From an uncultured Gammaproteobacteria bacterium (lineage in GTDB: Bacteria > Patescibacteriota > Microgenomatia > Daviesbacterales > UBA10151), in assembly GCA_964547465.1 (NCBI GenBank), contig CAZJNI010000002.1, positions 6,043 through 70,042 on the forward strand: a stretch of 64,000 bases of DNA. Direction: 5' to 3'. The position numbers and the translations under genes are program-made. Within the stretch, counting starts at the first letter, position 1. Each line of letters opens with the position of its first letter. Below the pieces are notes generated by a model. The model saw only the letters and a program-made list of their open reading frames with translations. It did not search any database and was not told where the DNA came from. Shown piece after piece: positions 18,004 through 64,000 of the stretch.

Positions 18004-18754
18004 GTAAGGTCAGACCTTACGAATCTAATCTTCCAATATTTTATTTTCTATCACTGAAAAATCATCATTTTCTTCTACGAATGCTTTATATGTAAGTTTA
18101 GGATTAGTTTTAGAAAAATTACTTAAAACCTCTTCTGGATGAACCCACTGCGTTTTTCTTTTGCCTAAATACTCATAATATGAGCATGGTTGAGTTTGCA
18201 AGGAGTCTCCTTGCAAAGCTAGTGCTTGTTTATGTATATAGCGGGACAGATGAAGAAATTGATTTTCATGGGTTACTAAAACTGCTTTGTATACATCTTG
18301 AAATAATGAACCTACTCTTTTGTATTTACGGTTAAAATACATGGTATACCTTGTGCATAATGATCTCATAAATTTATTAATTGTTTGGGCTGATTTTTGT
18401 TTAATAAAGAAATGAAAGTGATTAGGCATTAAACAATAGGCAATTAAAGATACTTCATCAGCAAAATTATTTAATCGAAGTATTTTTAGTATTTTATCCT
18501 TTTCTCTGTAAGAAACATTTGGATCTCCAAGTCTTTTTCTTAAAGTTTCCTCATCTTTAGGTAATAAATATTCTCTTAAATAGCCTAGTAATACTCCATA
18601 ATCTTGTTCATCTAGAAAAATTGTCCTCTTCTCAACTCCACGATTGTATAAGTGGTAATAACTATTATCCACATATAGCTTCAGAGAATTACGTGCCGGC
18701 ATAGTTTCAGTTTACCAGACTTTCGTTAAGCACACAAGGAGTCTCCTGGTGTGC
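18004..18754. mobile_element. IS200/RayT-like unit: Y1 HUH transposase gene bracketed by near-perfect palindromes (18004-18020 GTAAGGTCaGACCTTAC; 18730-18754 GCACACAAGGAgtcTCCTGGTGTGC), inserted between dcw genes
   Basis: Palindromes seen directly. An internal copy of the AAGGAGTCTCCTTG motif is at 18198-18214. REP-associated tyrosine transposases are known to be flanked by palindromic REPs. Confidence 0.4.
18025..18702 (-). CDS. IS200/IS605-family Y1 (HUH) transposase, REP-associated RayT-like
   Basis: HUH motif MPNHFHFFI and a catalytic Tyr region (RYTMYFNRKYKRVGSLFQ). N-terminal YHLYNRGVEKRTIFLDEQDY is typical of COG1943. Confidence 0.75.
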   Translation of the reverse strand: MPARNSLKLYVDNSYYHLYNRGVEKRTIFLDEQDYGVLLGYLREYLLPKDEETLRKRLGDPNVSYREKDKILKILRLNNFADEVSLIAYCLMPNHFHFFIKQKSAQTINKFMRSLCTRYTMYFNRKYKRVGSLFQDVYKAVLVTHENQFLHLSRYIHKQALALQGDSLQTQPCSYYEYLGKRKTQWVHPEEVLSNFSKTNPKLTYKAFVEENDDFSVIENKILED

Positions 18755-29523: not shown

Positions 29524-29787
29524 ATGTATTATGTATACGTTCTTAGGAGCTTAAAGGATGGAAAGTTATATTCTGGGTATACATCCAATTTGAAGCAAAG
29601 ATTGGAATACCATAATAATGGTAAGGTAGAATCTACTAAATGGAGAAAACCTTTTGAGTTGATCTATTTTGAAGGGTATAATCATCATCAAGATGCAACT
29701 GCAAGAGAAAAGTTCTTTAAGACGCAATGGGGTAGGAATTATATAAGGAGGGTGTTAAAGAATTATTGGAAAGAAATGGACAAGTAG
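29524..29787 (+). CDS. Small GIY-YIG nuclease-domain protein (YhbQ/UPF0213-like); stop codon overlaps the first 10 nt of tRNA-Val
   Basis: YVYVLRS..DGKLYSGYTSNLKQRLEYHNNG is a GIY-YIG motif. 87 aa. Confidence 0.75.
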   Translation: MYYVYVLRSLKDGKLYSGYTSNLKQRLEYHNNGKVESTKWRKPFELIYFEGYNHHQDATAREKFFKTQWGRNYIRRVLKNYWKEMDK

Positions 29788-29851
29788 CTCAGTTGGTTAG
29801 AGCGTCGCATTCACATTGCGAAGGCCACAGGTCCGAGTCCTGTCTTGTCCA
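29778..29851 (+). tRNA. tRNA-Val (anticodon CAC)
   Basis: Manual fold: acceptor GGACAAG/CTTGTCC, D-arm GCTC..GAGC, anticodon stem TCGCA/TGCGA with loop TTCACAT, T-arm ACAGG-TCCGAGT-CCTGT. No encoded CCA. Confidence 0.8.
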
Positions 29852-29852
29852 C

Positions 29853-31502
29853 TTACAGGGATTTTGTTCGATTATTGTAGTATTCAGCAACTTTTTCATC
29901 AGTTGTGTACCATCTTCCTAAAAACCAAACAGCATCCAGTCTACCTCCATGTGCATGCGGGACAAGTGATTTATCAAAACTTGCAACCCTTTTGATTCCT
30001 GCTGGATAAATAATTTTATTCTCAATAGCTTTTCTAGCGATTGATAAAGCACCTGTAATACTATCTTCAGATTTGTCTAACCCCTTTTCTATATCAGTAC
30101 TTTTTTTGCCCTGCAGCTTTAAATTAACAATTTCTAATATGTAGGGAGACAAATTTACCTCTCTGATTTTCAGCCATTCATTAAATTGTCTTAGAAAAAT
30201 ATCAACTGCCAACTCAAAGTTATCTGGTTGAGGTAAATGACGTCTTTTTTTCCGAGGTAGCCTATGATCAGAAATGGCTTTAGCAGTCTTAAAAAACCAA
30301 TTCCGAAAATTCTCATGAGAATCATTTTCTGGCATATTCTCTAACTCAACTGCAGAAAAAAGTTCAATCTGTCTTTGTGATATTGAATTGATTACTTCAA
30401 TAGGTCTAATATTATTTTGTGACGCTGTGTAAGTAGTTAAAAATTCTTTCGCATCTTCTGGTTTAATAAACCACCAGCTACCTTTTTTAACTCCTGGTAA
30501 ATATCCGCTTGCTAGTGCCTCTGTTAATCTATTTTTCACAGCAGGAGTAGCTGGAAAATCACTTACTTGTTGATATTCTTTTCCGGGAGATTTTATTCTT
30601 CTTTTCGCTCTAATTCTTTTACTTCTAAATTCATTCAACCCTTCTTGGGTGATATAGATCCTTCCTTGAGTTCGGGTTAAAAGATGTTTATATCTAAATC
30701 CTAATAGGGTTCCATACTCATCTGACGTTGTTTGTTCAGCAAGAGGTAAAAATCCTTGTTCCAGCATTGATGTACTTAGTGTAACTCTTTTATAATGATA
30801 TCTTTGCACCCATTCATCCGTTGTATACCAGCGTCCTAGAAATTTTACTGCTTCTAAACCACCTCTGCTAGCTGCTGTTGCTAGGGAGCCATCTTGATAA
30901 TCAGCTAGTAGTCTAAATCCAGCTGGATAGAATAGATTTCCTTCAATTTTGTCTCTTGCCCTATACATTAAATTAAGTACTGCCCGTTGGGTAGATCCTA
31001 ACTCGTCTATAATTTCAGATATTCCTTTACCCGCTGTTCTTAGTTCTACAGCTTTTAATTGGGCGGGGGTTAGTAATTCGGTAAGTCTATCTTTAAACCT
31101 TGGCATCAAATCTATGAAAGTAGTCTCTGTTCTCTCTTTTGGTTGCCTAACAAAAGTATCCTCAAAAGATACACCACGTGTCCTGATAATTCTCCTTAAC
31201 TCCATATTTATATTTGCTCTAGCTATAGTAAATGTCCACTTGATAAATGTCTTTGTTGGATCCTTACCTTTCAGATCAAACTCAAAAGACGGAAGAGCAG
31301 CATACATTTCTGAAAGAGTATCTTGGGTAAGGTCTTCAGCTTCGTTTGGAAGACGACGTACTAAATATCTAAATAATTCTGGTCTTAAAAAACCATCTAA
31401 TTCAGCAAAAGCCCGCTCATCTCCAGCTTTTATTCTCTTAACCACCAATGGTATATCAATTGAAGGTTTTGGTGTCCCTCTGCCTTCTGCTTCTAAAGTC
31501 AT
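29853..31502 (-). CDS. ECF-type sigma-70 family factor (regions 2 and 4) fused to a ~350-aa extension. The extension carries a second region-4-like HTH, and each HTH is followed by a repeated YPAG[FI]..GG.L.AV.FLGRWYTTDE module
   Basis: Region 2: AGDERAFAEL..LFRYLVRRLPNEAEDLTQDT..WTFTIARAN. Region 4: LTPAQLKAVELRTAGKGISEIIDELGSTQRAVLNLMYRARDKI. Internal duplication seen directly in the translation. Confidence 0.6.
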   Translation of the reverse strand: MTLEAEGRGTPKPSIDIPLVVKRIKAGDERAFAELDGFLRPELFRYLVRRLPNEAEDLTQDTLSEMYAALPSFEFDLKGKDPTKTFIKWTFTIARANINMELRRIIRTRGVSFEDTFVRQPKERTETTFIDLMPRFKDRLTELLTPAQLKAVELRTAGKGISEIIDELGSTQRAVLNLMYRARDKIEGNLFYPAGFRLLADYQDGSLATAASRGGLEAVKFLGRWYTTDEWVQRYHYKRVTLSTSMLEQGFLPLAEQTTSDEYGTLLGFRYKHLLTRTQGRIYITQEGLNEFRSKRIRAKRRIKSPGKEYQQVSDFPATPAVKNRLTEALASGYLPGVKKGSWWFIKPEDAKEFLTTYTASQNNIRPIEVINSISQRQIELFSAVELENMPENDSHENFRNWFFKTAKAISDHRLPRKKRRHLPQPDNFELAVDIFLRQFNEWLKIREVNLSPYILEIVNLKLQGKKSTDIEKGLDKSEDSITGALSIARKAIENKIIYPAGIKRVASFDKSLVPHAHGGRLDAVWFLGRWYTTDEKVAEYYNNRTKSL

Positions 31503-31696: not shown

Positions 31697-32524
31697 TTAT
31701 TTCAATTTCTTTATTGATGCACTTCCAACAAGCGATTGCATTTGTGTAATAGCAACCTCATTTAGTTGTATTAAACGCTTACTTTGGGATAGACCAAGCC
31801 GGATAAGTTCGGCATTTATACCTTCCAAATTTGCCAATACCACCAATTGAGTTACATCTGCCCAGTCGCGGATATTGCCGTTTTTATTATGATTTTCATC
31901 TCGCCACTCCTTAGCTGTTTTTCCAAACAGCGCCATGTTGAGTACGTCTGCTTCACTGGCATAGATTACATTGGTTGATTGCTTTGATAGTTGGGGAGGG
32001 ATCAAGTACGCTTTAACCGCATCAGTTTGAATCTTGTAGTTAATTTTTGCCAAAGTCCGTTTTATATCCCAACCCAAGGCTAAGCGTTGATTTTCTTCCT
32101 CTTTTAATCGTTGAAACTCTTTAATGAGAAACAGCTTGAATTCAGCGCTAATCCAACTAGCAAACTCAAAAGCAATATCTTTATGAGCGAAAGTGCCGCC
32201 GCCATATCTACCTGATTTAGAAGTCATACCTGTCGCAGCAGTAGAATCTATCCATTTTTGGGGAGAAAGGACAAATGAATTGCTTCCTGATTCATTTTTA
32301 AACCCGTCGAATTCGACCAGTTTAAAATTTGGGTTGTTTATCTTCTCCCATAAACCAAGAAATTCAATAGTACTATGGGTTCTCATCCAATTTTTTACAA
32401 CATCTGCAGGCGCATCTTTGTTTTTCAGCTTGGCAATATCAGTGAGAGAAATGAAGTCTCCCTGATCCTTTTTTAGTATATAGATCTGTATGCCCTTGGT
32501 AATTATCTTTTTCATTTTAGGCAT
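31697..32524 (-). CDS. KilA-N domain protein (phage/mobile-element-associated DNA-binding family)
   Basis: N-terminal YILKKDQGDFISLTDIAK...THSTIEFLGLWE. Central GGGTFAHKDIAFEFASWISAEFKLFLIKEFQRLKEEE is typical of KilA-N/DinD-like proteins. Confidence 0.6.
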   Translation of the reverse strand: MPKMKKIITKGIQIYILKKDQGDFISLTDIAKLKNKDAPADVVKNWMRTHSTIEFLGLWEKINNPNFKLVEFDGFKNESGSNSFVLSPQKWIDSTAATGMTSKSGRYGGGTFAHKDIAFEFASWISAEFKLFLIKEFQRLKEEENQRLALGWDIKRTLAKINYKIQTDAVKAYLIPPQLSKQSTNVIYASEADVLNMALFGKTAKEWRDENHNKNGNIRDWADVTQLVVLANLEGINAELIRLGLSQSKRLIQLNEVAITQMQSLVGSASIKKLK

Positions 32525-32664: not shown

Positions 32665-34185
32665 ATGTATAAAATTTCAAAAAATATCCTTTATAATTTT
32701 TCGGGGCAAGTAACTCTACTAATTTTAACTATAGTTACAGCTCCCTTTATTATAAATTCCCTGGGTCATGATAAATATGGTATTTTTACTTTGGCTATTA
32801 CAGTTGTGGGTTATTTTTCTATTTTGGACTTAGGATTAGGTACCTCAATCATTAAATTTATATCAGATTCCCATTCAAGGCAGGATAAAGAGTCTTTAGA
32901 AAAAATTATCAACACCTCTTTAACTTCTTATACGGTAATTGGATTTTTGGGGGCAGTTTTGATTATATTATCTACTCAATTTATTGTAAGAGGGGCTCTG
33001 CATATTCCTTTAACCTTAATTCCCTTGGCCTTATCGGTTTTCTATATTAGTTCATTAGGTTTTTTTGTAAATATGATTTTGACAGTTTTTAATAGCATAC
33101 CTATTGCTTTAGAACGGATGGATATTACAAATAGCAGAAATATTATCTTTGGTCTTTTAAATACTTTAGGTATTGTTATACTTTTGATCCTTGGTCAGGA
33201 TCTTCTGACAGTAATTATATGGAGTATTTTAGTTTCAGTAGTCGCAACAGTAAGTTTTCTAAAGATAATTTTTGACCTTTTACCAAATATTAAGATAAAG
33301 TTTGGTTTTGATAAAGAAATATTTGTTAGGTTAATAAAATTTGGACTGTTTAAATCTATAGTTAATATAAGCGGTCAAATTGTTTTTCAGTTAGACAGAC
33401 TACTAATTGGTATTTTCCTTCCTATTGCATCTGTTACCTTTTATACTGTCCCTGCTATTTTGGCCCAAAGAGGTTTTTCAATACTCTTTAATGTTACAAG
33501 CGCTTTCTTTCCGGCTATTAGCTTCTCTCAAGCTAAGGATGATAAACAAAGAGTAAAAGATTTATATCTCCGTATGACAAAAATAATCATTTTGCTGATC
33601 TCCCCCCTTATGGCAATTATTTTTCTCCTTGCAGAAGATATTTTAGAGATTTGGTTAGGGTCTCAGTTTGCGTACCAAAGTACCTCAACCCTAAAAATAT
33701 TAACATTAGCTTATTTTCTAGCAGCTTTTTCTGCTCCGGGAGTAATTGTTTCAGATGCATCTAACAAACCTCAAATTCCAGCTATTTTTTCGATATTTAG
33801 TGCTGCGATAAACTTGATAGCAGCATTAATTTTAATACCGGTATTAGGCATAGAAGGTGCCGCTTGGGCACTCGTTATAAATTTTGCGGTTCAAGTTCCT
33901 GTATTTTTAATGATTGTTCATAAAAAAGTTCTAGGGATATCTCATCTTACTGTTATTGCTCAGTCAATAATAAAACCATTATTATCCGGGATTACTACAG
34001 CAGTAATTTTATATACCGCACTTAACTTCATTGATAGTCCAATCCAGCGTTTAGTAGCTATACCTATTCTTTTTGGTTTATTGTATATAGTTATAAACTA
34101 TCTTATTGGTACATTTGATGAGAGAGATAAGTTAATGGTTTTATTTTTTATAAACAGGTTTAAATTAATATTTCAAAGAAAATAA
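32665..34185 (+). CDS. Oligosaccharide flippase (Wzx/MOP superfamily, polysaccharide biosynthesis protein)
   Basis: About 14 predicted TM helices over 506 aa. Sits in a glycan-synthesis neighbourhood. Confidence 0.65.
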   Translation: MYKISKNILYNFSGQVTLLILTIVTAPFIINSLGHDKYGIFTLAITVVGYFSILDLGLGTSIIKFISDSHSRQDKESLEKIINTSLTSYTVIGFLGAVLIILSTQFIVRGALHIPLTLIPLALSVFYISSLGFFVNMILTVFNSIPIALERMDITNSRNIIFGLLNTLGIVILLILGQDLLTVIIWSILVSVVATVSFLKIIFDLLPNIKIKFGFDKEIFVRLIKFGLFKSIVNISGQIVFQLDRLLIGIFLPIASVTFYTVPAILAQRGFSILFNVTSAFFPAISFSQAKDDKQRVKDLYLRMTKIIILLISPLMAIIFLLAEDILEIWLGSQFAYQSTSTLKILTLAYFLAAFSAPGVIVSDASNKPQIPAIFSIFSAAINLIAALILIPVLGIEGAAWALVINFAVQVPVFLMIVHKKVLGISHLTVIAQSIIKPLLSGITTAVILYTALNFIDSPIQRLVAIPILFGLLYIVINYLIGTFDERDKLMVLFFINRFKLIFQRK

Positions 34186-34186
34186 A

Positions 34187-34789
34187 ATGGCAAAAAACTG
34201 GGCAACTTTTTACTCAAAATCCTTTGATTTTGAATTTTTGATCAGAAATACATATGTTCATCTTGATATGTTTAAGTCAATTTATAATGAACGCCCTAAA
34301 AGATTGCTTGAGGTTGGCGTTGGCAGCGGATCAATGTCCATCTTTTGGTCTTATTTAGGACTTAAATTATTTGCTTTGGATAATGATCCAAGAGTTTTGG
34401 AAAAAGCAAAATATATGTCAAAGAGTTTAAATGGTAATGTGAAATTTGTTTATGGGGATGCTTTTAAACTTCCATTTAAAGATAATTCTTTTGATGTGAT
34501 ATTTCATCAGGGACTCTTAGAACATTTTTCAGATGAAGAAATTATAAGACTCCTTAATGAGCAACTTAGAGTTGGAAAAGTAGCAGTTTTTAGTGTGCCC
34601 AATAATTTTTATAAGGAAAAAGATTTTGGTGATGAAAGATTATTATCTAAAAAAAATTGGGATAAATTTTTGAAAACAAATTTCAATTTAATTGAGAGTA
34701 AAAACTATAATCCTGTAAGAGAGAAGATCTTTAAAAAAATTCCATATAAAGTTGTAAATACGATGTACTATGCAAAAATAAAAAGATGA
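34187..34789 (+). CDS. Class I SAM-dependent methyltransferase
   Basis: LEVGVGSGSMS motif I. DVIFHQGLLEHF motif. Confidence 0.75.
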   Translation: MAKNWATFYSKSFDFEFLIRNTYVHLDMFKSIYNERPKRLLEVGVGSGSMSIFWSYLGLKLFALDNDPRVLEKAKYMSKSLNGNVKFVYGDAFKLPFKDNSFDVIFHQGLLEHFSDEEIIRLLNEQLRVGKVAVFSVPNNFYKEKDFGDERLLSKKNWDKFLKTNFNLIESKNYNPVREKIFKKIPYKVVNTMYYAKIKR

Positions 34790-35970
34790 AAAATATAGTT
34801 CTAGATTTAAGATCTCTGGAGAGCCCAACCGGCAAAAGAGGAATAGGTTATTTTAACAAACATCTTTTTGAGGCTTTACTTTCAAATCCCCATCCTGATT
34901 TTAAATTTAATTTATTAACTTTTCCCGGGAGCAGTTTACCCAGTAAGTTTAAGGTAGGGCCGGAAGATAAATTTAGGTCAGTACCGGCTTTATTTTGGCC
35001 AAAAAAAGGGCTGCGCAAACTTGACCCTTTTTTTTCCCTATTTTGGCAGCGAACACTAAATCAGCTTAAGAGTGAACTTGTACATATACCATCCCTTTTT
35101 GAAACATATTACCTAAATGTGCCAAATAATATTAAATCTATTGTGACGCTTTATGATCTTATCCCTCTGCTTTTTCCAAAGCAATATTTTCAAAATGAAA
35201 AAGCTCATGTTTGGTATAAACAAAGATTAGAACAAGCAAAAAATGCTTCAAAAATTATCACCATTTCGCAATCATCTAAAAGAGATATTGCGGAATTTTT
35301 AAAAATTCCATCTGAAAAAATTGAAGTTGTTTATGGTGGAGTAGATGCGCGGTTTAAACCAATAGATAAGCAAAAAGTATCAAAAATTATCCAAAAATAT
35401 AAAATTAAGCGGCCTTATATCTTAACAGTCAGCACTCACAGTTTTCATAAAAATATTTCCAGGATTTTTCAAGCGTTTAAAGAATATATTAATACATCTT
35501 TAAATAATGATTTAAATTTAGCAGTTGTTTGTAAATTAATTCCCACAGAGCTGAAAGACTGGCAAAGAGAGCTTAAACAGCTGGGAATAGAAAAAAGAGT
35601 TATCTTAACTAATTTTGTTGAAGATGAGGATTTAGCCGCCATTTATTGTGGAGCTGAAGTCTTTCTGTTTCCATCATTATACGAGGGTTTAGGGTTACCG
35701 GTTTTGGAAGCTTTTGCTTGTGGTACTGTTGTGATTACCTCAAATGTTGCATCAATGCCGGAGGTGGGGGGTGATGCTGCTTTGTATGTAAATCCGGAAA
35801 GTGTGGAAAATATTAAATCTGCGATTGCTCAACTTTTAAACGATCAAATCTTAAAGCAGCAGCTAATCAAAAAAGGTTTCAGCCAGGTTAAGAAATTTAG
35901 CTGGAATAAAGCATCCAAACAAGTAATGCAAATTTATAAAGAAATAATCCAAAATAAAATTGGGGGATAA
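34786..35970 (+). CDS. Glycosyltransferase family 1 (GT4-type)
   Basis: EGLGLPVLEAFACGTVVITSNVASMPEV is the canonical GT1 C-terminal motif. Confidence 0.85.
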   Translation: MKNIVLDLRSLESPTGKRGIGYFNKHLFEALLSNPHPDFKFNLLTFPGSSLPSKFKVGPEDKFRSVPALFWPKKGLRKLDPFFSLFWQRTLNQLKSELVHIPSLFETYYLNVPNNIKSIVTLYDLIPLLFPKQYFQNEKAHVWYKQRLEQAKNASKIITISQSSKRDIAEFLKIPSEKIEVVYGGVDARFKPIDKQKVSKIIQKYKIKRPYILTVSTHSFHKNISRIFQAFKEYINTSLNNDLNLAVVCKLIPTELKDWQRELKQLGIEKRVILTNFVEDEDLAAIYCGAEVFLFPSLYEGLGLPVLEAFACGTVVITSNVASMPEVGGDAALYVNPESVENIKSAIAQLLNDQILKQQLIKKGFSQVKKFSWNKASKQVMQIYKEIIQNKIGG

Positions 35971-37058
35971 AATAAGCTGTTAGCAAAAAAGGAATGGATT
36001 AAAAGTCCAACAATGGCGGAAATCAAAGCAGGATTTTTAGGATATGAATATTTTAAGAGACTTATCAGAAATATAAAATAGATACTAAGCCCAACTATTC
36101 CTGTAGTTGATGCAATGAATAAAAGACTGGAATCATTACCGGTTGAGCCGTGACCTTTGATGAATTCCTCGTCCCCTAAATTATATTCTTTTAAAGCATA
36201 TCTGTATGCATTAAACCCTACCCCTAAAATTGGGGATTTTTGAAAAATAGTAAAACCCTGCTGCCAGGTATCAACACGGGATGCGGCTGACTGGGTTCTG
36301 TCTATATATCTTGGTCTTGCTACTAATTCTGTATAAATTTGAAATCCGAGTAACAGAACAAAAAATAAAATAATTACTGATAAGAAAAATATTCTTGATT
36401 TTTTTAAAAAAGAAAAGGTTACACCACTGATTAAAAACATTAAATAACTTGAACGGGAAAAAGTAGCTAATAGAGCTATATATACTATTGCCATTACTGA
36501 CAGTCTAATATTGTGGAGATTCTTAAATGACATCAGTAGTAGAAATGTTAAAACAAAATAAGCACCTGCAAAATTTGGATCCAAAAATGTGGAGACCACT
36601 CTAAAATAATGCGGATCCCACCCGCTGATTGTCAAAAATTGTAAATCCGGTAAAAAAATAAACTGTAATAATCCTAAAATAGCTAAGCCAACTCCGCTGG
36701 TTAAAAATGTATTAGTAAGATTTTTTTTAAAGTCTGCAAAGGCGCCTGAATAAATTATCCAGCCGCTCAATATGTATGAAGAAAATCTGATGGTGTAAAA
36801 AAAGCTTAACAGGTATTCAGTTTTAGTTAAATGAAGTGGCGTTAAGATAAGTGATATTGTACTGCTAGTCAAAAATAATCCTGCAATTTTAATAAAAAGG
36901 GGTGGGTTTTTTAACCTGAACCTTAATTTAAAAATTCCCATAAGACAAAAGCAAATAACAAAAAAATCAAGCAGGGTAGGACCAAGATTTCCAAGAAGTG
37001 GAAACTTTATTAACTGACCTGCTAAAATCGAAAGTAGTAAACTTAAGTTAAGTAACAT
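35934..37058 (-). CDS. O-antigen ligase/polymerase-like (Wzy_C-type) integral membrane protein
   Basis: About 10 TM helices with a large periplasmic loop region. Neighbours are glycosyltransferases and a flippase. Confidence 0.45.
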   Translation of the reverse strand: MLLNLSLLLSILAGQLIKFPLLGNLGPTLLDFFVICFCLMGIFKLRFRLKNPPLFIKIAGLFLTSSTISLILTPLHLTKTEYLLSFFYTIRFSSYILSGWIIYSGAFADFKKNLTNTFLTSGVGLAILGLLQFIFLPDLQFLTISGWDPHYFRVVSTFLDPNFAGAYFVLTFLLLMSFKNLHNIRLSVMAIVYIALLATFSRSSYLMFLISGVTFSFLKKSRIFFLSVIILFFVLLLGFQIYTELVARPRYIDRTQSAASRVDTWQQGFTIFQKSPILGVGFNAYRYALKEYNLGDEEFIKGHGSTGNDSSLLFIASTTGIVGLSIYFIFLISLLKYSYPKNPALISAIVGLLIHSFFANSLFYPPILFWIISL

Positions 37059-37075
37059 GACCTAAATTATAGACT

Positions 37076-38137
37076 ATGAAACTATATCCTAACATAAGTT
37101 TAATTTTTTGTATCTGGACTTTATCGCTTTTAATGATATCTTTTTTTGGCTATTCTCTGCTTCCCCATTCTGAAAAAGCGGCTGCTGATTTTGTAAGCAA
37201 TTTATCAATTTGGGATGGAGGACATTATTTAAATATAGCAAAATATGGATACAGCGAAAAAATTCAATATGCTTTTTTCCCAATGTATCCTTTGCTAATT
37301 AGGGTTATTAATTTAGTTTTCCAAAATTACTTAATTTCAGGACTTTTAATAAGTGTAGTCAGTTCATTTTTAGCAATTCAAATACTTTATAAACTTGTCA
37401 TTTTGGATTTTGACAAAAAAATTGCTGAAAAAGTAATTCTATCTTTATTACTGTTTCCAACAGCTTTTTATTTTTTAATTGTTTACTCGGAAGGACTTTT
37501 TTTCCTTTTGACTGTTTCATCGTTCTACTTCTTAAGGAGGAATAAGCTTTTACTTGCAGTAATTTTTGCCAGTTTGGCATCTGCAACCAGGCTTTCGGGT
37601 TTAGCAGTAGTTTTGGCTATCTTAATAGATGTTCAAATAAATTATGGAATAAATAAAAAGAATTGGTTTGTTTTATTATCACCACTGGGATTTATTCTTT
37701 ATTGTTGGTTTCTTTTTCAACAAACTAATGATCCATTATATTTTCTTACAGCCGAAAACAATTGGCAAAGATATTTAACACTTCCCGGAATAAGTTTTTG
37801 GGAGTCAATAAGAAATATCTCTTCGGGTAATTTAAATTTGAATAATTTTAATATCTTTTTAGATCTTGTATTTTCTATATTTGGTTTAGGTTTTGTAATA
37901 AGAAGTTTTAGATTTTTACCATCAGTATATTCTTTTTATGGTACAATTTCTTTGGCTTTTCCGCTGTTCACTTCTACATTAATATCAATACCGAGATTTC
38001 TAGTAGTTTTATTCCCAATCTTTATTTTAATAGCGTTAATAAAAAATAAATATGTATCTTTGACTTATCAGGTAATCTCTTTAATGCTACTTTCACTTTT
38101 TGTAAGCCTTTTCATCAACGGATATTGGGTAAGTTAA
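37076..38137 (+). CDS. GT-C-type integral membrane glycosyltransferase-like protein (PIG-V/DUF2029-like)
   Basis: Multi-TM protein with WDGGHYLNIAKYGY near the N-terminus, resembling the conserved motif of GT-C mannosyltransferase-like families. Confidence 0.4.
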   Translation: MKLYPNISLIFCIWTLSLLMISFFGYSLLPHSEKAAADFVSNLSIWDGGHYLNIAKYGYSEKIQYAFFPMYPLLIRVINLVFQNYLISGLLISVVSSFLAIQILYKLVILDFDKKIAEKVILSLLLFPTAFYFLIVYSEGLFFLLTVSSFYFLRRNKLLLAVIFASLASATRLSGLAVVLAILIDVQINYGINKKNWFVLLSPLGFILYCWFLFQQTNDPLYFLTAENNWQRYLTLPGISFWESIRNISSGNLNLNNFNIFLDLVFSIFGLGFVIRSFRFLPSVYSFYGTISLAFPLFTSTLISIPRFLVVLFPIFILIALIKNKYVSLTYQVISLMLLSLFVSLFINGYWVS

Positions 38138-38865
38138 GGGGTGAAATTAATATTGCGGGAAATTTCCGTTGAATTTTGAGCGCTGTCCAAAGCCTTAATG
38201 GTAAAATTATTATCCCCATCATTTAAGGATTGATCAGAGGAAAAACTTCCATCTTGGTCAACAATTATTTGATTGCCGTTTATGAAAACTTTAGCACCTG
38301 CTTCTGTTTTACCGACAAACTTTATTTTTCTCTCACCCTGAATTTTCTTACTATCTTCAGGCTCACTTAAATCCAGAATAGGTTTTTCATTATCAAAAAT
38401 TATTTTAATTGTTTTAGAAGGTAGACTTTCATTACCCTTATCATCAACAGTTTTTCCATATATATTATTTGTGCCCAAACTTAAATCAATATTTTGAAAA
38501 TTGAATGAGCCATCAGAAGTGACATCTGCTGTTTGTTTTTCCTCATCATCCATAAAAAGTTTTACTTTCAAATCAGGTGTGGAATAGCCCTGGATATCAA
38601 TTTGGGTGCTACTGGTTGCCTCATACGGAATGTTTAAGACAGGAGGTGCCAGAGTTATTTGATTTTCTAAATTTAGTTTTTTGACAGTTGGATGAATAAA
38701 ATCCTTTACAGAACCAATTATTCCAATAAAATTTGGCAGAATCCAAAGTAAGGCGAGATAAGAAAAAATGATAACAAGTATTAAACTAATAATGAAATTG
38801 CGTTTGCTTTTGCCGGCTGCCCTTCTGATAGCACGGGGCCTATATTTATATGATCTGTAAGCCAT
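38134..38865 (-). CDS. Membrane-anchored protein with Ig-like extracellular repeats
   Basis: N-terminal TM helix then a beta-rich repetitive segment (NFQNIDLSLGTNNIYGKTVDDKGNES..). Confidence 0.4.
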   Translation of the reverse strand: MAYRSYKYRPRAIRRAAGKSKRNFIISLILVIIFSYLALLWILPNFIGIIGSVKDFIHPTVKKLNLENQITLAPPVLNIPYEATSSTQIDIQGYSTPDLKVKLFMDDEEKQTADVTSDGSFNFQNIDLSLGTNNIYGKTVDDKGNESLPSKTIKIIFDNEKPILDLSEPEDSKKIQGERKIKFVGKTEAGAKVFINGNQIIVDQDGSFSSDQSLNDGDNNFTIKALDSAQNSTEISRNINFTP

Positions 38866-38892
38866 TTGTAAATAGTATATAATAATCCAGCT

Positions 38893-38964
38893 TGCGGTGG
38901 TAGTTCAGCAGCAGAATGTCTCCTTCCCAAGGAGAAGGTCGGGGGTGCAAATCCCCTCCACCGC
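38893..38964 (+). tRNA. tRNA-Gly (anticodon CCC)
   Basis: Manual fold: acceptor GCGGTGG/CCACCGC, anticodon stem TCTCC/GGAGA with loop TTCCCAA, T-arm GGGGG-TGCAAAT-CCCCT. Confidence 0.75.
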
Positions 38965-38976
38965 TCAGCGAGATCA

Positions 38977-40524
38977 ATGCCTAAGTTTTCTTGGCTCATT
39001 CTAATTTTCTTTTTGGCTTACTTTCTGCTGGGTCTTTTTATCTTTAGAGATTACGGATCTTATTGGGATGAACCAAGGGATAGACTTACAGGTATAGTTG
39101 CCTTAAAATTTGTGCTATTTAAAGACCCGGAGCTATTTTCTTACAGGGACCGCTACTATGGAACTGCTTTTCAGCTGCCGTTGGTTGCTTTGGAAAAATG
39201 GTTGAGAATTGATAGTCCTCCTGAAATTTATTTTTTAAGACACTTTTCCACCTTTTTATTATTTTTTATAGCGGTTTTTATTTTTTACCTGCTTTGTAAA
39301 GACTATTTCAAAAACTTTTGGATTGGGGTTTTGGGTGCAACTTTTTTGATTTTAAGTCCCAGAATTTTTGCTGATAGTTTTTATAATTCAAAGGATCTAG
39401 TGTTGCTTTCTGCTTTTATCATTAGCTCTTATACAATGTATCGCTTTATCAAAAGTCCCAATATCCTTTGGTCCACCCTTCATGCAGCAGCCTGTGCCTT
39501 TGCTGTTGACGTCAGATTAGTAGGATTACTTATCCCGGGATTTACGGCTCTGTTTATATTATTTGATGTTATAGTCTCACCTGCTTTTGGTGGTTTCTTA
39601 AAAACAAAAGTAATTCCTCTTGGTATCTTCATTCTATTTTTTTGGCTATTTGTCATTCTTTTCTGGCCCTTTCTCTGGAGAAATTCCCTTACAAACTTTA
39701 TTGACGCTATCGGTTTTATGAGTAAGTTTGAAGCTTATGGAGGAACAGTTTTGTACCTTGGTCAATTTATAAAGGCAAATCAAGTTCCCTGGCATTACAT
39801 TCCTGTCTGGATCTTTTTTACTACCCCGTTGCTTTATACATTGCTATTTCTTGTGGGGATGCTGAAAACACTTATAAGACTTAGGTACCATTTGAGAGCC
39901 ACTTACCGTAAAGAAAAGATCCTCCTGCTATCACTTCTTTGGCTACTAATTCCCTGGGTTTTAGTTATTAACTCTCATAATGAGCTCTATGACGGCTGGA
40001 GACATTTTTATTTTATCTATCCGGCCTTTTTATTAATAGCTCTTTATGGTTTTTACGCTATCTGGGAATTATTTAAAAATGTAAAATTTGCAAAGGTTGC
40101 GGCCGTTATAGTTATTTTGGGTAATTTTGCCTGGGTTGGGCGCTTCATGGTTATTAATCATCCTTATCAATATCTTTATTTTAATGAGGCTATTGGGGGA
40201 ATGGAAAATGCCAAAAAGAATTTTGATCTTGATTATTGGGGTTTAACTTTTAAAAAGGGGTTAGAATTTATAGCACAAGAGGATCAGGGTAGCGCCATAC
40301 CTTATATGCTTGAATTTGGATCAGCAGGGAATGTACAAATTTTACCAAAAAAGGATTGGGAACGCTTTGTATTCATTTATGATTTCCAAAAGATGGATCA
40401 AGCTAAATATATCTTAAGCAATTATCGTTGGCATCCGCAGGATTATCAAGGTCAGAACGAGATTTATAGCCTTAAGATAGATAAGACTAAAGTTATGAGT
40501 GTATTTAAGGCTCCATTTAAATAA
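38977..40524 (+). CDS. GT-C family membrane glycosyltransferase, ArnT/PMT (GT39/GT83)-like
   Basis: N-terminal FRDYGSYWDEPRDRLTGIV is like the ArnT/PMT DE motif region. About 12 TM helices. 515 aa. Confidence 0.5.
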   Translation: MPKFSWLILIFFLAYFLLGLFIFRDYGSYWDEPRDRLTGIVALKFVLFKDPELFSYRDRYYGTAFQLPLVALEKWLRIDSPPEIYFLRHFSTFLLFFIAVFIFYLLCKDYFKNFWIGVLGATFLILSPRIFADSFYNSKDLVLLSAFIISSYTMYRFIKSPNILWSTLHAAACAFAVDVRLVGLLIPGFTALFILFDVIVSPAFGGFLKTKVIPLGIFILFFWLFVILFWPFLWRNSLTNFIDAIGFMSKFEAYGGTVLYLGQFIKANQVPWHYIPVWIFFTTPLLYTLLFLVGMLKTLIRLRYHLRATYRKEKILLLSLLWLLIPWVLVINSHNELYDGWRHFYFIYPAFLLIALYGFYAIWELFKNVKFAKVAAVIVILGNFAWVGRFMVINHPYQYLYFNEAIGGMENAKKNFDLDYWGLTFKKGLEFIAQEDQGSAIPYMLEFGSAGNVQILPKKDWERFVFIYDFQKMDQAKYILSNYRWHPQDYQGQNEIYSLKIDKTKVMSVFKAPFK

Positions 40525-40591
40525 ATTACCCAAATTTCTACATATCTACTTAATTTCTTGTATAATTTTATCTGTGCCATGGAGATTGTAG

Positions 40592-40663
40592 GCCGACTTG
40601 GCTCAATGGTAGAGCAGCTGTTTCGTAAACAGCAGGTCACTGGTTCGATTCCAGTAGTCGGCT
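40592..40663 (+). tRNA. tRNA-Thr (anticodon CGT)
   Basis: Manual fold: acceptor GCCGACT/AGTCGGC, D-arm GCTC-AATGGTA-GAGC, anticodon stem GCTGT/ACAGC with loop TTCGTAA, T-arm ACTGG-TTCGATT-CCAGT. Confidence 0.85.
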
Positions 40664-40679
40664 CAAAAATACCGTATCG

Positions 40680-42497
40680 TTATTTACTCGCCTCAATTAG
40701 GCCTTGTCTGGCAAATTGATTTTGAGGATCCAAAGATAGAACTTGATTAAAAATTTGTTTTGCTTTTTCTTTATCACTTTTAGCCAGATAAACTATCCCT
40801 AAATTATTTACTAAATTTAAATTTTTAGGATTAACCATAATGGCTTTTTGAATATATTGCAGTGCTAAATCATATTGTTTTTGGTCAAAATATAAAGCGG
40901 CTATATTTTGAAAGGACTGCCAGAGGTTTGGATTTATTTTGGCTGCCATTTGGTAACTTTCCATTGCCTTGTCCATTTGACCCATTTCCCTGTAGGTATT
41001 TCCCAGGTTATGATAAGCATCAGCATAGTTTGGTTTTAGCTCAATTGCCCTGCTAAATTCCCTCAAAGCTCCTTCCTTATCGCCGCGTCGTCCGTACACA
41101 TCCCCTAAATTATTGTGTGTATTAGGAGAAGAAGGGGAGGTTTTGCCTGTTGCTATCCAGAGATTATCTTCGTTTTGCCAGTCTATCCCTCTAAAAAAGG
41201 TTCTGACAGACAAGGCCAGAATTATTAAAACAAAAATAATATAAAGTGTATTAGTAAACTTTTTCCTAAGTAAAATTAACTTGTCCAATCCTAAAGCCAG
41301 AAGAGTGAAAATACCTATACTCGGTAAATAAATATACCTTTCTGCTACTATCCAGTTTAACCTGAATGGGGTGAGAGTTGGGGATAGAGCAATTATAAAA
41401 AAGGATAACCAGAAGAAAGTAGATTTATCTTTTTTGAATCCAACAAGAATAAGTCCAAAAAATGCCAGAGTTAATAAAGCTCTCATGGCAAATGAAAAAT
41501 TACCAAAAGCAAGTTCAGAATGATAAAGGGTTAAAATTTTGGGGAAAAATATTAATTCTGCATAAGATGAGATAGCAATTGGAATTTGAATTAAGGGATT
41601 ATCTACACCTTTTTCCTGATAATGGACAGTCTGCAAAGTTGTTTCTCTTTCAGGTAAAGCAGCAAGGTTCACAAAAACATAAACAAGAGCAAGTATTAAA
41701 AAGGGGATAAATTTAAACCAGTTCTTCTTAAGGCTTCTAAAGCAAAAATCATACAAAGGATAGATTACAAAAAGCGCTGCAGGCATCACAGGGTGCGACA
41801 TTAAAGATAGAAGATAGAAGATAGAAGATAGAATATAGAAAAGCTTTTTTTCTGAAGATAAAATATAAAACAGAAATGATAAAAGGAAAAAGAAGCTATA
41901 TTGTGCATACATGCCTCCGGAAATCCAAAGCACAGCTTCTGCGATAGCCGGATGCACTGCAAACAAGGCGGAGGCAAAAAGAGCAATTCTTTTTGATTTG
42001 TATATTAGAAAAATAATAAAGTAGACAAGATAAGAAGACAAAAGATGGAAAATTAAATTAGTAAGCCTGAACGTAAAAGGATTAACTCCTCCAATGTGTA
42101 CAGATGCCCAATAAATAAAATGTCTGATTGGCCCAAAGGGATATTGCAATATGCGGGAAAAGTCTGCTATTTCAGGTTTTTGAGCAATTTCTGCAATATC
42201 ATCAGATATAAAGGCATTATTTAGAAAATATGTATAAGTAAAAATTACCAGTAGGCTTAAGATTAAAAGGTTGATCCAGTGATTTTTAATCCAGGATTTT
42301 TTATCAATATGATTTGGAGGGGTGCGATTATTTTTGTGTCTTTTTAAGAAAATATTCAATTTTTCCTTACCCCATTTTTTGCCTAAATAACTTAAAATTT
42401 CTTCTCTGGGGAGCGTTAAATTACCGGCAATTTCCTCTATAGTTTGCTCCTTGAGGTGTTTTTTTAGATAACTTTTTTGACTATGGGTAAGTTGCAT
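40680..42497 (-). CDS. Membrane protein with a PMT/ArnT-like multi-TM N-domain fused to C-terminal TPR repeats (TMTC-like architecture)
   Basis: C-terminal TPRs (NLGDVYGRRGDKEGALREF..AIELKPNYADAYHNLGNTYREMGQMDKA..). More than 10 TM helices. Confidence 0.6.
   Translation of the reverse strand: MQLTHSQKSYLKKHLKEQTIEEIAGNLTLPREEILSYLGKKWGKEKLNIFLKRHKNNRTPPNHIDKKSWIKNHWINLLILSLLVIFTYTYFLNNAFISDDIAEIAQKPEIADFSRILQYPFGPIRHFIYWASVHIGGVNPFTFRLTNLIFHLLSSYLVYFIIFLIYKSKRIALFASALFAVHPAIAEAVLWISGGMYAQYSFFFLLSFLFYILSSEKKLFYILSSIFYLLSLMSHPVMPAALFVIYPLYDFCFRSLKKNWFKFIPFLILALVYVFVNLAALPERETTLQTVHYQEKGVDNPLIQIPIAISSYAELIFFPKILTLYHSELAFGNFSFAMRALLTLAFFGLILVGFKKDKSTFFWLSFFIIALSPTLTPFRLNWIVAERYIYLPSIGIFTLLALGLDKLILLRKKFTNTLYIIFVLIILALSVRTFFRGIDWQNEDNLWIATGKTSPSSPNTHNNLGDVYGRRGDKEGALREFSRAIELKPNYADAYHNLGNTYREMGQMDKAMESYQMAAKINPNLWQSFQNIAALYFDQKQYDLALQYIQKAIMVNPKNLNLVNNLGIVYLAKSDKEKAKQIFNQVLSLDPQNQFARQGLIEASK
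41806..41840. repeat. Tandem heptanucleotide repeat (GATAGAA x4 plus TATAGAA) inside the TPR-membrane protein coding sequence
   Basis: Seen directly in sequence. The unit length is not a multiple of 3. Confidence 0.85.
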
Positions 42498-42546
42498 GCA
42501 TTATAGATATTAAATCTTTCTTTTTTGGATGAAAAGAGTGGAAAAG

Positions 42547-43212
42547 TTATCTGGGTATAGTTAGAACCTGGCCGGGTTCAATAAGATCAGGATTTGCAAT
42601 ATTATTTGCTTTGGCAATCCGATCATAGGCGTAAATATTACCATAAGCTCTGCCTGCAATCTTTGATAGCCAGTCACCTTCGACTACGGTGTAGGTATTA
42701 GATGTAATTTCAGGACCCCAACTCTGTTGCATCATAGTGACATCCGGAGCCCCTTTTGATCCGGGTGCAGCATTAGATGGTTCCTCTATTGCAGGAGCTT
42801 CAGATAAGACTGGTACCTCTTCTATTTTTGGTATTTCCAAAACCTGACCTACCTCAATCTGATCAGGATTTGAGATATTGTTAGCTTTGGCAATTTCTGT
42901 GAATTTATATCCGTCTTTGTAATATTTTTCAGCGACAGTAAATAAGGTGTCATCTTCTTTAACAGTATATTTTCCGGGTAAATTTTCAGGGGAAACATCT
43001 TCTTCCATTTGGGTTTGTTGGGCCGGACCTAAATCTGCACTATTTTTGTTAAAGTAATTAAAAACTAAAATCCCCACAACTAAAACAATCAAAGCACCTA
43101 AAATCATGCTCAACCTTGATTGATTAGACTCAACTTGACCTTCCAGTTTTTCAACATAACTTTCATAAACTGGAGTTGCCCCATTTTTTTTATTTGAAGT
43201 TTTTCTTGCCAT
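42547..43212 (-). CDS. LysM-domain protein (two LysM repeats, N-terminal TM anchor)
   Basis: Two copies of the YTV.E.D.L..IA...Y.....IA.AN.I.NPD.I..GQVL.IP LysM pattern. Confidence 0.8.
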   Translation of the reverse strand: MARKTSNKKNGATPVYESYVEKLEGQVESNQSRLSMILGALIVLVVGILVFNYFNKNSADLGPAQQTQMEEDVSPENLPGKYTVKEDDTLFTVAEKYYKDGYKFTEIAKANNISNPDQIEVGQVLEIPKIEEVPVLSEAPAIEEPSNAAPGSKGAPDVTMMQQSWGPEITSNTYTVVEGDWLSKIAGRAYGNIYAYDRIAKANNIANPDLIEPGQVLTIPR

Positions 43213-55456: not shown

Positions 55457-55822
55457 TTGAACATGAATTCAAAACAGTTTGGAGATTATGGGGAGGATTT
55501 GGCAGTTTGGTATTTAAAGAAGCAAGGGTATGAGATTCTGGAAAGAAATTACCGGATTAGTGGTGGGGAGATAGATATTGTGGCAATGGATGGGGAGACT
55601 TTGGTGTTTGTGGAAGTAAAGAGTAGATGGTCACATGAATTTGGCCCGCCTGCCGAATCTATGACTCCCTGGAAAATTAAATATTTAGTAAAAACCGCTC
55701 AATTTTATGTTTTAAAAATAAACTGGGAAGACAAAGAATATAGATTAGATTTTATTTCTATTGATTTTGCAGATGATCCCGAAAATCCCAAGATTGAGCT
55801 AATCAAAAATATTACTTCTTAG
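55457..55822 (+). CDS. yraN: YraN-family (UPF0102) endonuclease-like protein
   Basis: GDYGEDLAVWYLKKQGYEILERNYR..GEIDIVAMDGETLVFVEVKSR is the classic UPF0102 pattern. Confidence 0.75.
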   Translation: MNMNSKQFGDYGEDLAVWYLKKQGYEILERNYRISGGEIDIVAMDGETLVFVEVKSRWSHEFGPPAESMTPWKIKYLVKTAQFYVLKINWEDKEYRLDFISIDFADDPENPKIELIKNITS

Positions 55823-56687
55823 AGTTTCCTTCAACCGCGAATGGAATCTCTTTCCAGTCATGTACTTTCCTGATTTTTTTATCATACTTCCACATTGTTT
55901 CCAGTAAGCTATTGTCTACGCCCATTTTTTTAAACTCTCCCATTATTGCCACCAGGTCTTTGGGAAAACATTTACCTCCAAAGCCTCGCTGCGTGGTAAC
56001 TTCCAGATGATAATCTCCGATTCTGTGATCAAATGCCGCCATTTCTTTTACTTCCTCATATTTAATACCCAGCTTTTGACAGTAATCATAAAAATAATTG
56101 GCAAAAGTAACTTTCATTGACAAAAAAGCATTGGCAAAATATTTAACGCATTCTGCAGTGGTAGGGTCTGTAAAAAATATTTTTTGTTTGGGAAATCTTT
56201 GCCTGAAAATTATTCCAACACTTCTTAAAACCCAATCAGAATCTGCTCCCAAAACAGTTCTTTCCGCATTTAAAAAATCCTCCAGATAATTTGCTTCAGT
56301 TAAAAATTCCGGGTTAAAACAGAATTTAGATTTGGGATATTTCTTTTGAAATTTAGCGGTTGTCCCGGGAATTACTGTAGATTTGATGATGATTATTTTA
56401 TCTGTGTTATCTGTTAATTTGGTTATTTGGGGAATCATATCCTCAAAAATTGATAAATCTATGCCTGATTCATCAGCTTTCATAGGGGTGGGAAGACAGA
56501 CAAAAATAAAATCTGAATTCTTTATTACATTCTCCAGTGGTTCTCCGTCCTTAAATTTGTCATACCATTTTATGGTATCCAGGCCGTTTGAGACAGTTTT
56601 AAAGCCGTTGGCCACAGCCTGGCCCACAAAGCCATACCCGATGATGCCGATTTTGATGGGAATTAATAATGCATCAGTAGTATCCAT
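55812..56687 (-). CDS. Nucleotide-sugar dehydrogenase (UDP-glucose/GDP-mannose dehydrogenase family), short form
   Basis: N-terminal GIIGYGFVGQAV Rossmann motif. Active-site-like GFGGKCFPKDL resembles the UDPG-DH catalytic Cys motif GFGGSCFPKD. Confidence 0.6.
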   Translation of the reverse strand: MDTTDALLIPIKIGIIGYGFVGQAVANGFKTVSNGLDTIKWYDKFKDGEPLENVIKNSDFIFVCLPTPMKADESGIDLSIFEDMIPQITKLTDNTDKIIIIKSTVIPGTTAKFQKKYPKSKFCFNPEFLTEANYLEDFLNAERTVLGADSDWVLRSVGIIFRQRFPKQKIFFTDPTTAECVKYFANAFLSMKVTFANYFYDYCQKLGIKYEEVKEMAAFDHRIGDYHLEVTTQRGFGGKCFPKDLVAIMGEFKKMGVDNSLLETMWKYDKKIRKVHDWKEIPFAVEGNSKK

Positions 56688-61833: not shown

Positions 61834-62313
61834 TTATCTTGTGACTGAAACTGGAGGAGTAATCATGCTTGGGGCTGTCACAGTTACTCTTCCACTTGAG
61901 TCCTTTTTAATGTTATATCCGGTTACATTAAGCGCCGGATCTTCATTACAAGTAGTAATTTCTGTGCCATTATTTACCCCTGGGTCTACTGGTAAAGCAG
62001 ATATATAAGTTGTCACAAGATCTGTACAAATCATTCCAGCATCTTTATCTGTGTCTGTAATTCCTGGAAGACTTCCTCTGTTATTTGCGGCGAATGCTCC
62101 GACTGCATTTAAAATTGCATTAATGTCATTTCGTCTTTTGGTATCATCTGCTTGACCGAATTGTTTAGATGGATTAATGGCAATTAAGACAATTGAAAGA
62201 AGTACTGCTAAAATTCCAATAACAACCAGCAGTTCAATTAATGTAAAACCTTTTTGTTTTATTTTCGGTACTAAATTTAGCATATTCTGACCCTTATTAT
62301 GCCATAAAAACAT
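61834..62313 (-). CDS. Type IV pilin / pseudopilin (prepilin N-terminal methylation domain)
   Basis: KGFTLIELLVVIGILAVLLSIV is the class III signal and hydrophobic alpha-1 helix. Confidence 0.8.
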   Translation of the reverse strand: MFLWHNKGQNMLNLVPKIKQKGFTLIELLVVIGILAVLLSIVLIAINPSKQFGQADDTKRRNDINAILNAVGAFAANNRGSLPGITDTDKDAGMICTDLVTTYISALPVDPGVNNGTEITTCNEDPALNVTGYNIKKDSSGRVTVTAPSMITPPVSVTR

Positions 62314-63510: not shown

Positions 63511-64000
63511 CTACCTTGTACCGATTGTTGTCTGGAATGTTTCAGTCTGATTGTTCCCGCCTGTTTTTATAACTTTACTTTTAATAATAAAGCTGACTTG
63601 AACTGTATTATTTGTACCTCCGGAAATGCCGAGTGTTGTAAAGTTGAGATTAGAAATTGTGGTATCTGCGCTATTTAATTGATCAACTGTGGGGTTTGTA
63701 ATCAGCAAATTATTATTCCCATCAAGTGAATAAGTATAGTTTGTTCCGTCAACAATAATTTGTAGAGAAGCAGCTGAATTGCCAATAGCTGGACTAACAA
63801 TTGAGCTAGCCCGGTGAATATCATAGGAAAGTCTGGAGGTAATAAATCTGCCATCCTGGGTGACACTGGAAGTGGCTTCAGACTCCAGTTTTACATCCAA
63901 AATAGAACCAAAAAACCGCATTAAGGTAACCAGCAAAATAGAAAAAATTCCCATATACAAAAGCATTTCTACAAGACTGAAGCCACGTTCATGTGATAAA
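63511..64000 (-). CDS. Type IV pilin-like protein, 5'-partial (start lies beyond the window end)
   Basis: Extending the frame past the annotated Met gives ...HERGFSLVEMLLYMGIFSILLVTL, i.e. a G/FSLVE prepilin cleavage motif. No stop before nt 64000. Confidence 0.7.
   Translation of the reverse strand, partial: LSHERGFSLVEMLLYMGIFSILLVTLMRFFGSILDVKLESEATSSVTQDGRFITSRLSYDIHRASSIVSPAIGNSAASLQIIVDGTNYTYSLDGNNNLLITNPTVDQLNSADTTISNLNFTTLGISGGTNNTVQVSFIIKSKVIKTGGNNQTETFQTTIGTR

Follow-up and report, generated by a model that had tools for sequence, protein, structure and literature searches.

This analysis concerns a block of surface-glycan genes at positions 32665-43212 of a 64,000-nucleotide (nt) window of contig CAZJNI010000002.1 (assembly GCA_964547465.1, forward-strand positions 6,043-70,042), and in particular a 605-residue membrane protein encoded there that resembles the animal TMTC1-4 proteins. 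Homologues of this protein number several hundred and, where their source is named, come from Candidatus Daviesbacteria or Microgenomates, which makes the genome one of the candidate phyla radiation (CPR; Patescibacteria). An earlier, sequence-only reading of the same DNA had proposed a surface-glycan or glycoconjugate module, and the nine open reading frames (ORFs) and two tRNA genes that it listed were found again at exactly the same positions. With families assigned by Pfam, tRNAs by ARAGORN and tandem repeats by TRF, the Pfam families bear out the glycan module, and profile searches placed none of the proteins with multiple transmembrane (TM) helices in an unrelated transporter family.

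The block opens on the plus strand with a three-gene operon. The first gene encodes a Wzx-type lipid-linked glycan flippase of the MOP family (32665..34185; 506 residues; Polysacc_synt 75 bits, Polysacc_synt_3 64 bits) and the second an S-adenosylmethionine (SAM)-dependent methyltransferase (34187..34789; 200 residues; Methyltransf_25/11/31), whose top NCBIfam match, under its cut-off, is the oligosaccharide methyltransferase MftM and which probably O-methylates a sugar. The third product is a cytoplasmic GT-B glycosyltransferase (34786..35970; 394 residues; Glycos_transf_1 107 bits, Glyco_transf_4 51 bits) whose relatives in the PDB are MshA, PimA and BshA-type GT4 enzymes; its earlier label, GT1, has to be corrected, as Pfam Glycos_transf_1 is CAZy family GT4. 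On the minus strand follows a conserved core gene for a membrane protein with a Wzy_C domain (35934..37058; 374 residues; Pfam Wzy_C 63 bits), predicted to be either a glycan polymerase or a ligase/O-oligosaccharyltransferase.

Three proteins of the block belong to the glycosyltransferase fold class C (GT-C), as had been suspected, one through its Pfam family and two doubtful membrane proteins through their fold. The first is PIG-V-like (37076..38137, plus strand; 353 residues) and matches Mannosyl_trans2 (PF04188) at 46.3 bits against a cut-off of 22.4, although only over the N-terminal part of the profile (positions 49-208 of 443); it carries a WDGGHY..IAKYGY segment following TM1 and has no match among PDB sequences. 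Next to it on the minus strand lies the gene of an N-terminally membrane-anchored protein with two Ig-like beta-sandwich domains (38134..38865; 243 residues; Glucodextran_B 61 bits, Big_13 31 bits; hydrophobic anchor at about residues 24-50). This protein was also considered as PamR, a CPR pilus protein, and rejected in that role, since the NCBIfam score of 20 bits against a cut-off of 300 reflects a shared fold only. The second GT-C gene (38977..40524, plus strand; 515 residues; GT39/PMT_2-like) is an accessory gene and does lie, as first described, between two plus-strand tRNA genes, tRNA-Gly(CCC) at 38894..38966 and tRNA-Thr(CGT) at 40592..40664. The gene of the 605-residue protein (40680..42497, minus strand) comes next, and the block closes with a membrane-anchored protein of 221 residues (42547..43212, minus strand) that carries two LysM domains (91 bits over two stretches) and is predicted to bind peptidoglycan. 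Both this gene and the TMTC-like gene are read from the minus strand, with the LysM gene immediately 5', and co-transcription of the pair is therefore probable.

The 605-residue protein consists of a cytoplasmic N-terminal extension (residues 1-65), a GT-C membrane domain (about 66-450) and, after the last TM helix, a C-terminal array of four tetratricopeptide repeats (TPRs; about 452-602; TPR_1 113 bits). Homology predicts that it crosses the membrane 11 times, with its N-terminus in the cytoplasm and its TPR array on the outer side. Its N-domain drew no match from Pfam or from PDB sequences, whether searched as a single sequence or as a profile, and the identity of the domain came solely from a fold search, which returned a GT-C fold, and from an hhalign comparison with eight animal TMTC1-4 N-domains rebuilt from Additional file 1 of Eisenhaber et al. 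2021 (PMC7801869). In that comparison the family alignment of the bacterial protein matched the animal TMTCs with a probability of 99.6% and an E-value of 1e-23 over 364 aligned columns at 25% identity, running from TM1 to TM11 (columns 9-372 of 392 against 5-429 of 430); the block's other GT-C family, used as a control, reached 0.4%. Since the match extends over the whole membrane domain and the control family shows none, the protein is on this comparison a true member of the TMTC family, and the TMTC-like character first proposed from its architecture is upheld by homology. The block's two GT-C families gave no significant hhalign match with each other and are therefore not recent paralogues.

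The motifs agree with this placement in part. Invariant in the 21 family members used for motif checks are S33-D34-D35 (motif M1, DD) and A320-E321-R322-Y323..Y325 (motif M7), both of which align to motifs among the seven defined for TMTCs (PMC7801869). Shared with the animal proteins (GT-C fold, CAZy GT105) are the order of an N-terminal GT-C membrane domain and C-terminal TPRs, the DD in loop 1, HP..EAV, the DNP in the DUF1736 loop, part of M6, and VAER.LY.PS.G ahead of TM10. The bacterial protein differs in having about four TPRs, where animal TMTCs have 8-10, in its extra 65-residue cytoplasmic extension, and in the Pfam DUF1736 family, which matched none of the 21 members; as lipid carrier it would use undecaprenyl phosphate in place of dolichyl phosphate. 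Judged by these motifs, it represents a divergent TMTC subfamily with a conserved catalytic core. The presence of the family in bacteria is not in itself new, as uncharacterised full-length TMTC homologues in prokaryotes have already been mentioned (PMC7801869). Our search of the literature on CPR glycosylation and on the function of bacterial TPR-GT-C proteins returned nothing directly relevant. Two further observations concern the family itself. The N-terminal extension (window 42303-42497; '...TIEEIAGNLTLPREEILSYL...') resembles a small helix-turn-helix and is found in about half of the orthologues (about 600 residues), the rest (about 535-545 residues) being without it. Outside Daviesbacteria, four TMTC-like genes lie close together on one Microgenomates contig (locus L063, 2437-13717; L-numbers are the labels of relatives' loci in our comparative set), a paralogue expansion.

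The setting of these genes was compared across relatives by means of gene tables for five genomes and a GTDB-wide scan that yielded 77 loci, mapped with phmmer and family hidden Markov models (HMMs). In the window the block is flanked on its 5' side by the dcw cell-wall cluster, isoleucyl-tRNA synthetase (IleRS), RodA, ParB and an S26 signal peptidase, and on its 3' side by PolX, LemA, an M48 peptidase, GatCAB and DnaE. The order LysM, TMTC-like, tRNA-Thr/Gly, Ig-like, (PIG-V), Wzy_C, glycosyltransferase/methyltransferase, Wzx is syntenic in about 45 Daviesbacteria species, bordered by M48-LemA-PolX and, at the opposite end, by S26-ParB-RodA-IleRS. All 45 Daviesbacteria-type loci have the LysM gene directly 5' of the TMTC-like one; in the 33 of these with at least 6 kb downstream, the Ig-like gene is present in 27 and Wzy_C in 23, and over all loci their orthologues number 29 and 26 (the latter up to 61% identical). 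PIG-V is present in 17 Daviesbacteria loci and absent from 6. The tRNA-Thr gene lies 2-60 nt 3' of the TMTC-like gene in most relatives, with tRNA-Gly conserved beside it. The closest orthologues of the core genes reach identities (TMTC-like 75%, LysM 66%, Ig-like 66%, Wzy_C 61%, PIG-V 60%) that are comparable with those of the housekeeping neighbours S26 (69%) and PolX (78%). Given this synteny and these identities, the frame is core and not an accessory island. The sequence-only reading had taken the region to be accessory and variable, and had named strict conservation in relatives as evidence to the contrary; for the block as a whole such conservation is largely what was found, most Daviesbacteria carrying it at housekeeping-like identities of 60-75%, whereas the accessory label holds for the 515-residue GT-C, the Wzx-methyltransferase-GT4 cassette and a KilA-N/sigma-like insert.

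Variation inside the frame is confined to three slots: the tRNA-Thr/Gly slot, the Wzx-methyltransferase-GT4 cassette and a tRNA-Val slot. In slot 1, tRNA-Thr and tRNA-Gly are adjacent in 12 loci and 0.14-8.9 kb apart in 12 others, where the cargo is mixed (Fic, helicases, nucleotidyltransferases, RhuM, MFS transporters, a glycoside hydrolase) and a PMT_2-type GT-C is the most recurrent item (4 loci). The 515-residue gene that fills the slot in the window has no orthologue in any locus compared, and no att-like direct repeats or partial tRNA duplications were found flanking it. Its product scores 20.0 bits for PMT_2, below the gathering score of 26.1, and its family profile matched no PDB sequence; many homologues at 40-47% identity carry PF13231 and some PF02366, and the protein itself folds as a GT-C and has, as expected of a member of the class, an acidic motif in its first outer loop. 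A second PMT_2-type GT-C family (about 500 residues, 'RFYNLPNSFIFAGDEE' after TM1) was noted at L016 4456-5946, L017 12510-14027, L025 5055-6536 and L031 12291-13919, in L025 and L031 exactly between the two tRNAs. It is unrelated at the HMM level to the 515-residue protein, and slot 1 has thus received GT-C genes of two families in five genomes, that of the window included. The slot-1 cargo of one other locus includes a PaaX central Cas2-like domain, which in the window is found in a small protein (10235-10726, plus strand) encoded just 5' of the Mur ligase genes.

Slot 2, between Wzy_C and S26, holds a Wzx in 18 loci, together with GT2 (14 loci) or GT4 (5 loci) and usually a methyltransferase. 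The window's own cassette has orthologues in only two of about 22 loci scanned, L035 and L040, while three or four further loci have a GT4 cassette that is less closely related; its Wzx has a close orthologue in L035 only (53%), other Daviesbacteria Wzx proteins being at most 25% identical, and its methyltransferase has orthologues in L040 and L035 only. This exchange, in which wzx co-varies with the glycosyltransferase, matches the pattern of serotype cassettes. Slot 3, at tRNA-Val (29778-29852), contains a 549-residue protein with a sigma-70 region-2 match only (29853-31502, minus strand) and a KilA-N protein (31697-32524, minus strand), neither with an orthologue in any related locus. It is a tRNA-adjacent insertion slot, possibly the remnant of a mobile element.

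Elsewhere in the window, pilins had been put forward as neighbouring substrates for glycosylation. The only two pilin-like ORFs, at 61834-62313 and 63511-63966 (both minus strand; class III signal motifs KGFTLIELLVV and RGFSLVEMLLY), give that proposal no support by position, the nearest lying about 19 kb away beyond PolX, GatCAB and DnaE. A UDP-glucose/GDP-mannose dehydrogenase ORF (55812-56687, minus strand) of only 291 residues has the N-terminal and central domains without the C-terminal one and may be truncated or a pseudogene. Within the dcw cluster, an IS200-like Y1 transposase (Y1_Tnp, 47 bits; 18025-18702, minus strand) sits on the opposite strand between an NAD-dependent epimerase gene and murG.

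Taken together, we read the block as a lineage-conserved locus that makes a cell-envelope glycoconjugate in Candidatus Daviesbacteria (CPR/Microgenomates) and attaches it with the help of extracytoplasmic GT-C transfer, its diversity produced, as in O-antigen loci, by the exchange of cassettes in slots next to tRNA genes and not by heptamer slippage; for this explanation as a whole we would put the probability at roughly 0.55. Inside the cell, the GT4 enzyme would lengthen a small polyprenyl-linked glycan and the SAM methyltransferase would methylate it; the cassette's own Wzx, a flippase by family, would then turn it outward. The Wzy_C protein would either polymerise this glycan or ligate it to an acceptor. 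At the outer face, GT-C enzymes would add more sugars from polyprenyl-phosphate donors, with the PIG-V-like and GT39-like proteins as optional decorators and the invariant TMTC homologue holding its catalytic DD loop and short TPR array outward, next to the putative peptidoglycan-binding LysM protein. By analogy with TMTC and PMT enzymes, the TMTC homologue would most likely glycosylate one or more envelope proteins, candidates being the Pro/Ser/Ala-rich linker of the LysM protein and the Ig-like protein. The latter is a candidate acceptor and a conserved partner of Wzy_C, and a partner or substrate role is possible because the two genes are conserved side by side and overlap by 4 nt in minimal loci such as L005. 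That the two halves of the locus work together is suggested by their constant co-location, by this same overlap, and by the neighbours of TMTC-like genes in 37 other Microgenomates and Omnitrophota loci, where GT2, GT4 and nucleoside diphosphate (NDP)-sugar enzymes are commonest. The more specific proposal, that the TMTC homologue is a bacterial protein O-glycosyltransferase whose TPR array recognises folded beta-sandwich or wall-bound proteins such as the neighbouring Ig-like and LysM proteins, is speculative and in our judgement improbable as stated.

Several observations weigh against this explanation. Published TMTC models assign mannose contact to motifs M2 and M3 and the binding of a metal ion to M4 and M5 (PMC7801869); in the bacterial family M2 (SHKSYRP) falls in a gap, while GG.Y, MSHP and YHSE stand in place of M3 (RxD), M4 (KE[TQ]xxT) and M5 (DW), and therefore neither a mannose donor nor a TMTC-like acceptor can be assumed. 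The genes of the block alternate between strands and form no single operon. TPR arrays occur also in polysaccharide export proteins and hence are no proof of a protein acceptor. The Wzy_C protein has no match among PDB sequences, and nowhere does the Wzy_C evidence separate a polymerase from a ligase. Further, the 64-kb window contains no initiating phosphoglycosyltransferase except MraY of the dcw cluster, no GT2 and nothing recognisable as a polyprenyl-phosphate sugar synthase. The idea that the GT2 found commonly in relatives supplies undecaprenyl-phosphate-linked sugar was not borne out: this enzyme resembles glycan-elongating GT2 enzymes of the chondroitin-synthase/GalT1 type more than DPMS, GtrB or ArnC. 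With no GT2 in the window and an elongation-type GT2 in relatives, the lipid-sugar donors are unaccounted for.

Some of these observations would suit a locus for wall polysaccharide only, that is, a secondary cell-wall polymer or capsule made by a Wzx/Wzy-dependent route, in which the GT-C enzymes, TMTC homologue included, add side-chain sugars in the manner of GtrC, YfhO or ArnT, no protein is glycosylated, and the only task of the TPR array and LysM protein is to keep the machinery in place at the peptidoglycan. Wzx, Wzy_C and a variable glycosyltransferase/methyltransferase cassette form the classic pattern of a polysaccharide locus, the TMTC mannose-contact and metal motifs are not conserved, the GT-C genes act like exchangeable decorating enzymes, and a LysM partner points towards the wall. 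However, the locus lacks an LCP ligase and an initiating transferase, neither the block nor the rest of the 64-kb window contains a chain-length or attachment factor, and there is a single cytoplasmic glycosyltransferase; all characterised TMTC and PMT activities act on proteins (PMC7801869), and a conserved Ig-like protein overlapping Wzy_C would be left without a role. We consider a purely polysaccharide locus rather unlikely. A single-glycosyltransferase cassette suits a short oligosaccharide, and the Wzy_C protein might accordingly be an O-oligosaccharyltransferase of the PglL/PilO/WsaB type that transfers such a glycan en bloc onto surface proteins (Ig-like, S-layer or pilins), the GT-Cs adding single sugars. 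According to PMC3643930, WaaL ligases share the Wzy_C domain with O-oligosaccharyltransferases of the PglL type, and genes of the latter are often found beside those of their targets; the window contains no lipopolysaccharide genes, and the Ig-like gene always adjoins Wzy_C. Yet Pfam and PDB results do not distinguish such an enzyme from a polymerase or ligase, the pilins are far off, and no Ser/Thr-rich stretch that could act as acceptor is obvious in the Ig-like protein, all of which makes en-bloc transfer a doubtful account of the locus.

A very different view, that the whole block is a horizontally acquired accessory island whose TPR gene is switched by slippage, turns on a heptanucleotide tract in the TMTC-like gene. 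The repeat reported earlier is real: TTCTATC x5.3 on the coding minus strand (AAGATAG x5.3 on the plus strand) at 41804..41840, with a TRF score of 67, where chance alone would give 0 matches. The TM segment that it specifies, FY[IL]LSSIFYLLS, comes immediately ahead of the invariant MSHP motif. The phase variation ascribed to it is another matter. We collected 24 alleles, namely that of the window, 12 from species loci and 11 from metagenome contigs in a scan that allowed 3-7 copies (sites including window 41804-41840, L002 10463-10499, and L011, L017, L020, L029, L030, L039 and L083-L093); these are assembly consensus sequences, which hide minority variants. All 24 have one tract length and an intact frame, and none differs by plus or minus 7 nt, which leaves phase variation unsupported. 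In the 12 species loci the tract occupies the same codons, shorter perfect runs being due to point substitutions. An island with slippage would draw support from the four tRNA genes in or beside the block, from a repeat unit of 7 nt, not divisible by 3, within a gene, and from a hint of maintenance at the DNA level: where the peptide is FYLLSSIFYLLS, the 36 nt of the tract are near-identical at synonymous sites across species, while these loci diverge in the codons to either side. This conservation could stem from slippage homogenisation, hidden OFF alleles or gene conversion. One broken allele also exists, in L056 (3066-4839), where a deletion of residues of about 215-239 removes the tract and the MSHP motif and the TPR region carries a 20-nt tandem duplication; since that contig shows other frameshifts, including one that splits PolX, gene decay or poor assembly is the probable cause. 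Against the island stand, besides the constant tract length, the low copy number (5), the synteny of the frame in about 45 species, and a G+C content of the block (0.28-0.38) close to the low value of the window (0.36). For the block as a whole this view is largely refuted, and we regard it as highly improbable.

A conserved envelope-glycoconjugate locus, the explanation preferred here, is not a new kind of system; it belongs to a known type, the Wzx/Wzy-type envelope glycan locus with GT-C transferases. With Wzx/Wzy-dependent O-antigen, capsule and S-layer-glycan loci it shares a Wzx, a Wzy_C protein, a cytoplasmic glycosyltransferase, a modifying enzyme, a fixed position between housekeeping genes and a variable cassette in which wzx follows the glycosyltransferase. 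It departs from them in having one cytoplasmic glycosyltransferase without an initiating transferase, chain-length regulator, LCP protein or WaaL-type acceptor context, and in a frame that includes two or three GT-C enzymes as well as LysM and Ig-like proteins. The GT-C component is reminiscent of GtrA/GtrB/GtrC, CsbB/GtcA/YfhO, ArnC/ArnT and bacterial Pmt (GT39), systems in which a GT-C enzyme takes a single sugar from a polyprenyl-phosphate donor at the outer face and which are often strain-variable; here, however, no recognisable GtrB/ArnC-type synthase and no GtrA-type flippase were found, and the likeness of the 515-residue protein to Pmt is limited by its sub-threshold PMT_2 match and its lack of a sequence-level PDB relative. 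Similarly, the PIG-V-like protein is linked to PIG-V/Gpi18 (GT76) by its above-threshold PF04188 match over the N-terminal half, but its gene is optional in the lineage (absent from 6 of 23 loci) and, as bacteria to our knowledge have no glycosylphosphatidylinositol (GPI) anchor, its acceptor must differ.

In CPR/Patescibacteria it is the envelope that mediates attachment to host cells, yet hardly anything about it has been characterised. As a conserved locus with clear boundaries, the block is a candidate for the lineage's main surface glycoconjugate. Its serotype-like cassette variation may reflect phage or host-recognition pressure. At about 540-600 residues, with about four TPRs and candidate partners encoded alongside, the bacterial TMTC homologue offers research on animal TMTCs a compact protein that could be taken into expression and structural work, and the contrast between the motifs it has kept (DD, AER..Y) and those it has replaced (sugar and metal contact) predicts residues that set donor specificity. 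We know of domain-specific O-glycosylation of Ig-like folds only from animal TMTCs (cadherins) and TMEM260 (plexins/MET). Were the bacterial TMTC to use its TPR array to glycosylate the neighbouring Ig-like and LysM proteins, it would be a prokaryotic counterpart, and possibly the origin, of Ig-fold O-glycosylation, in ultra-small episymbionts whose surface proteins mediate contact with the host.

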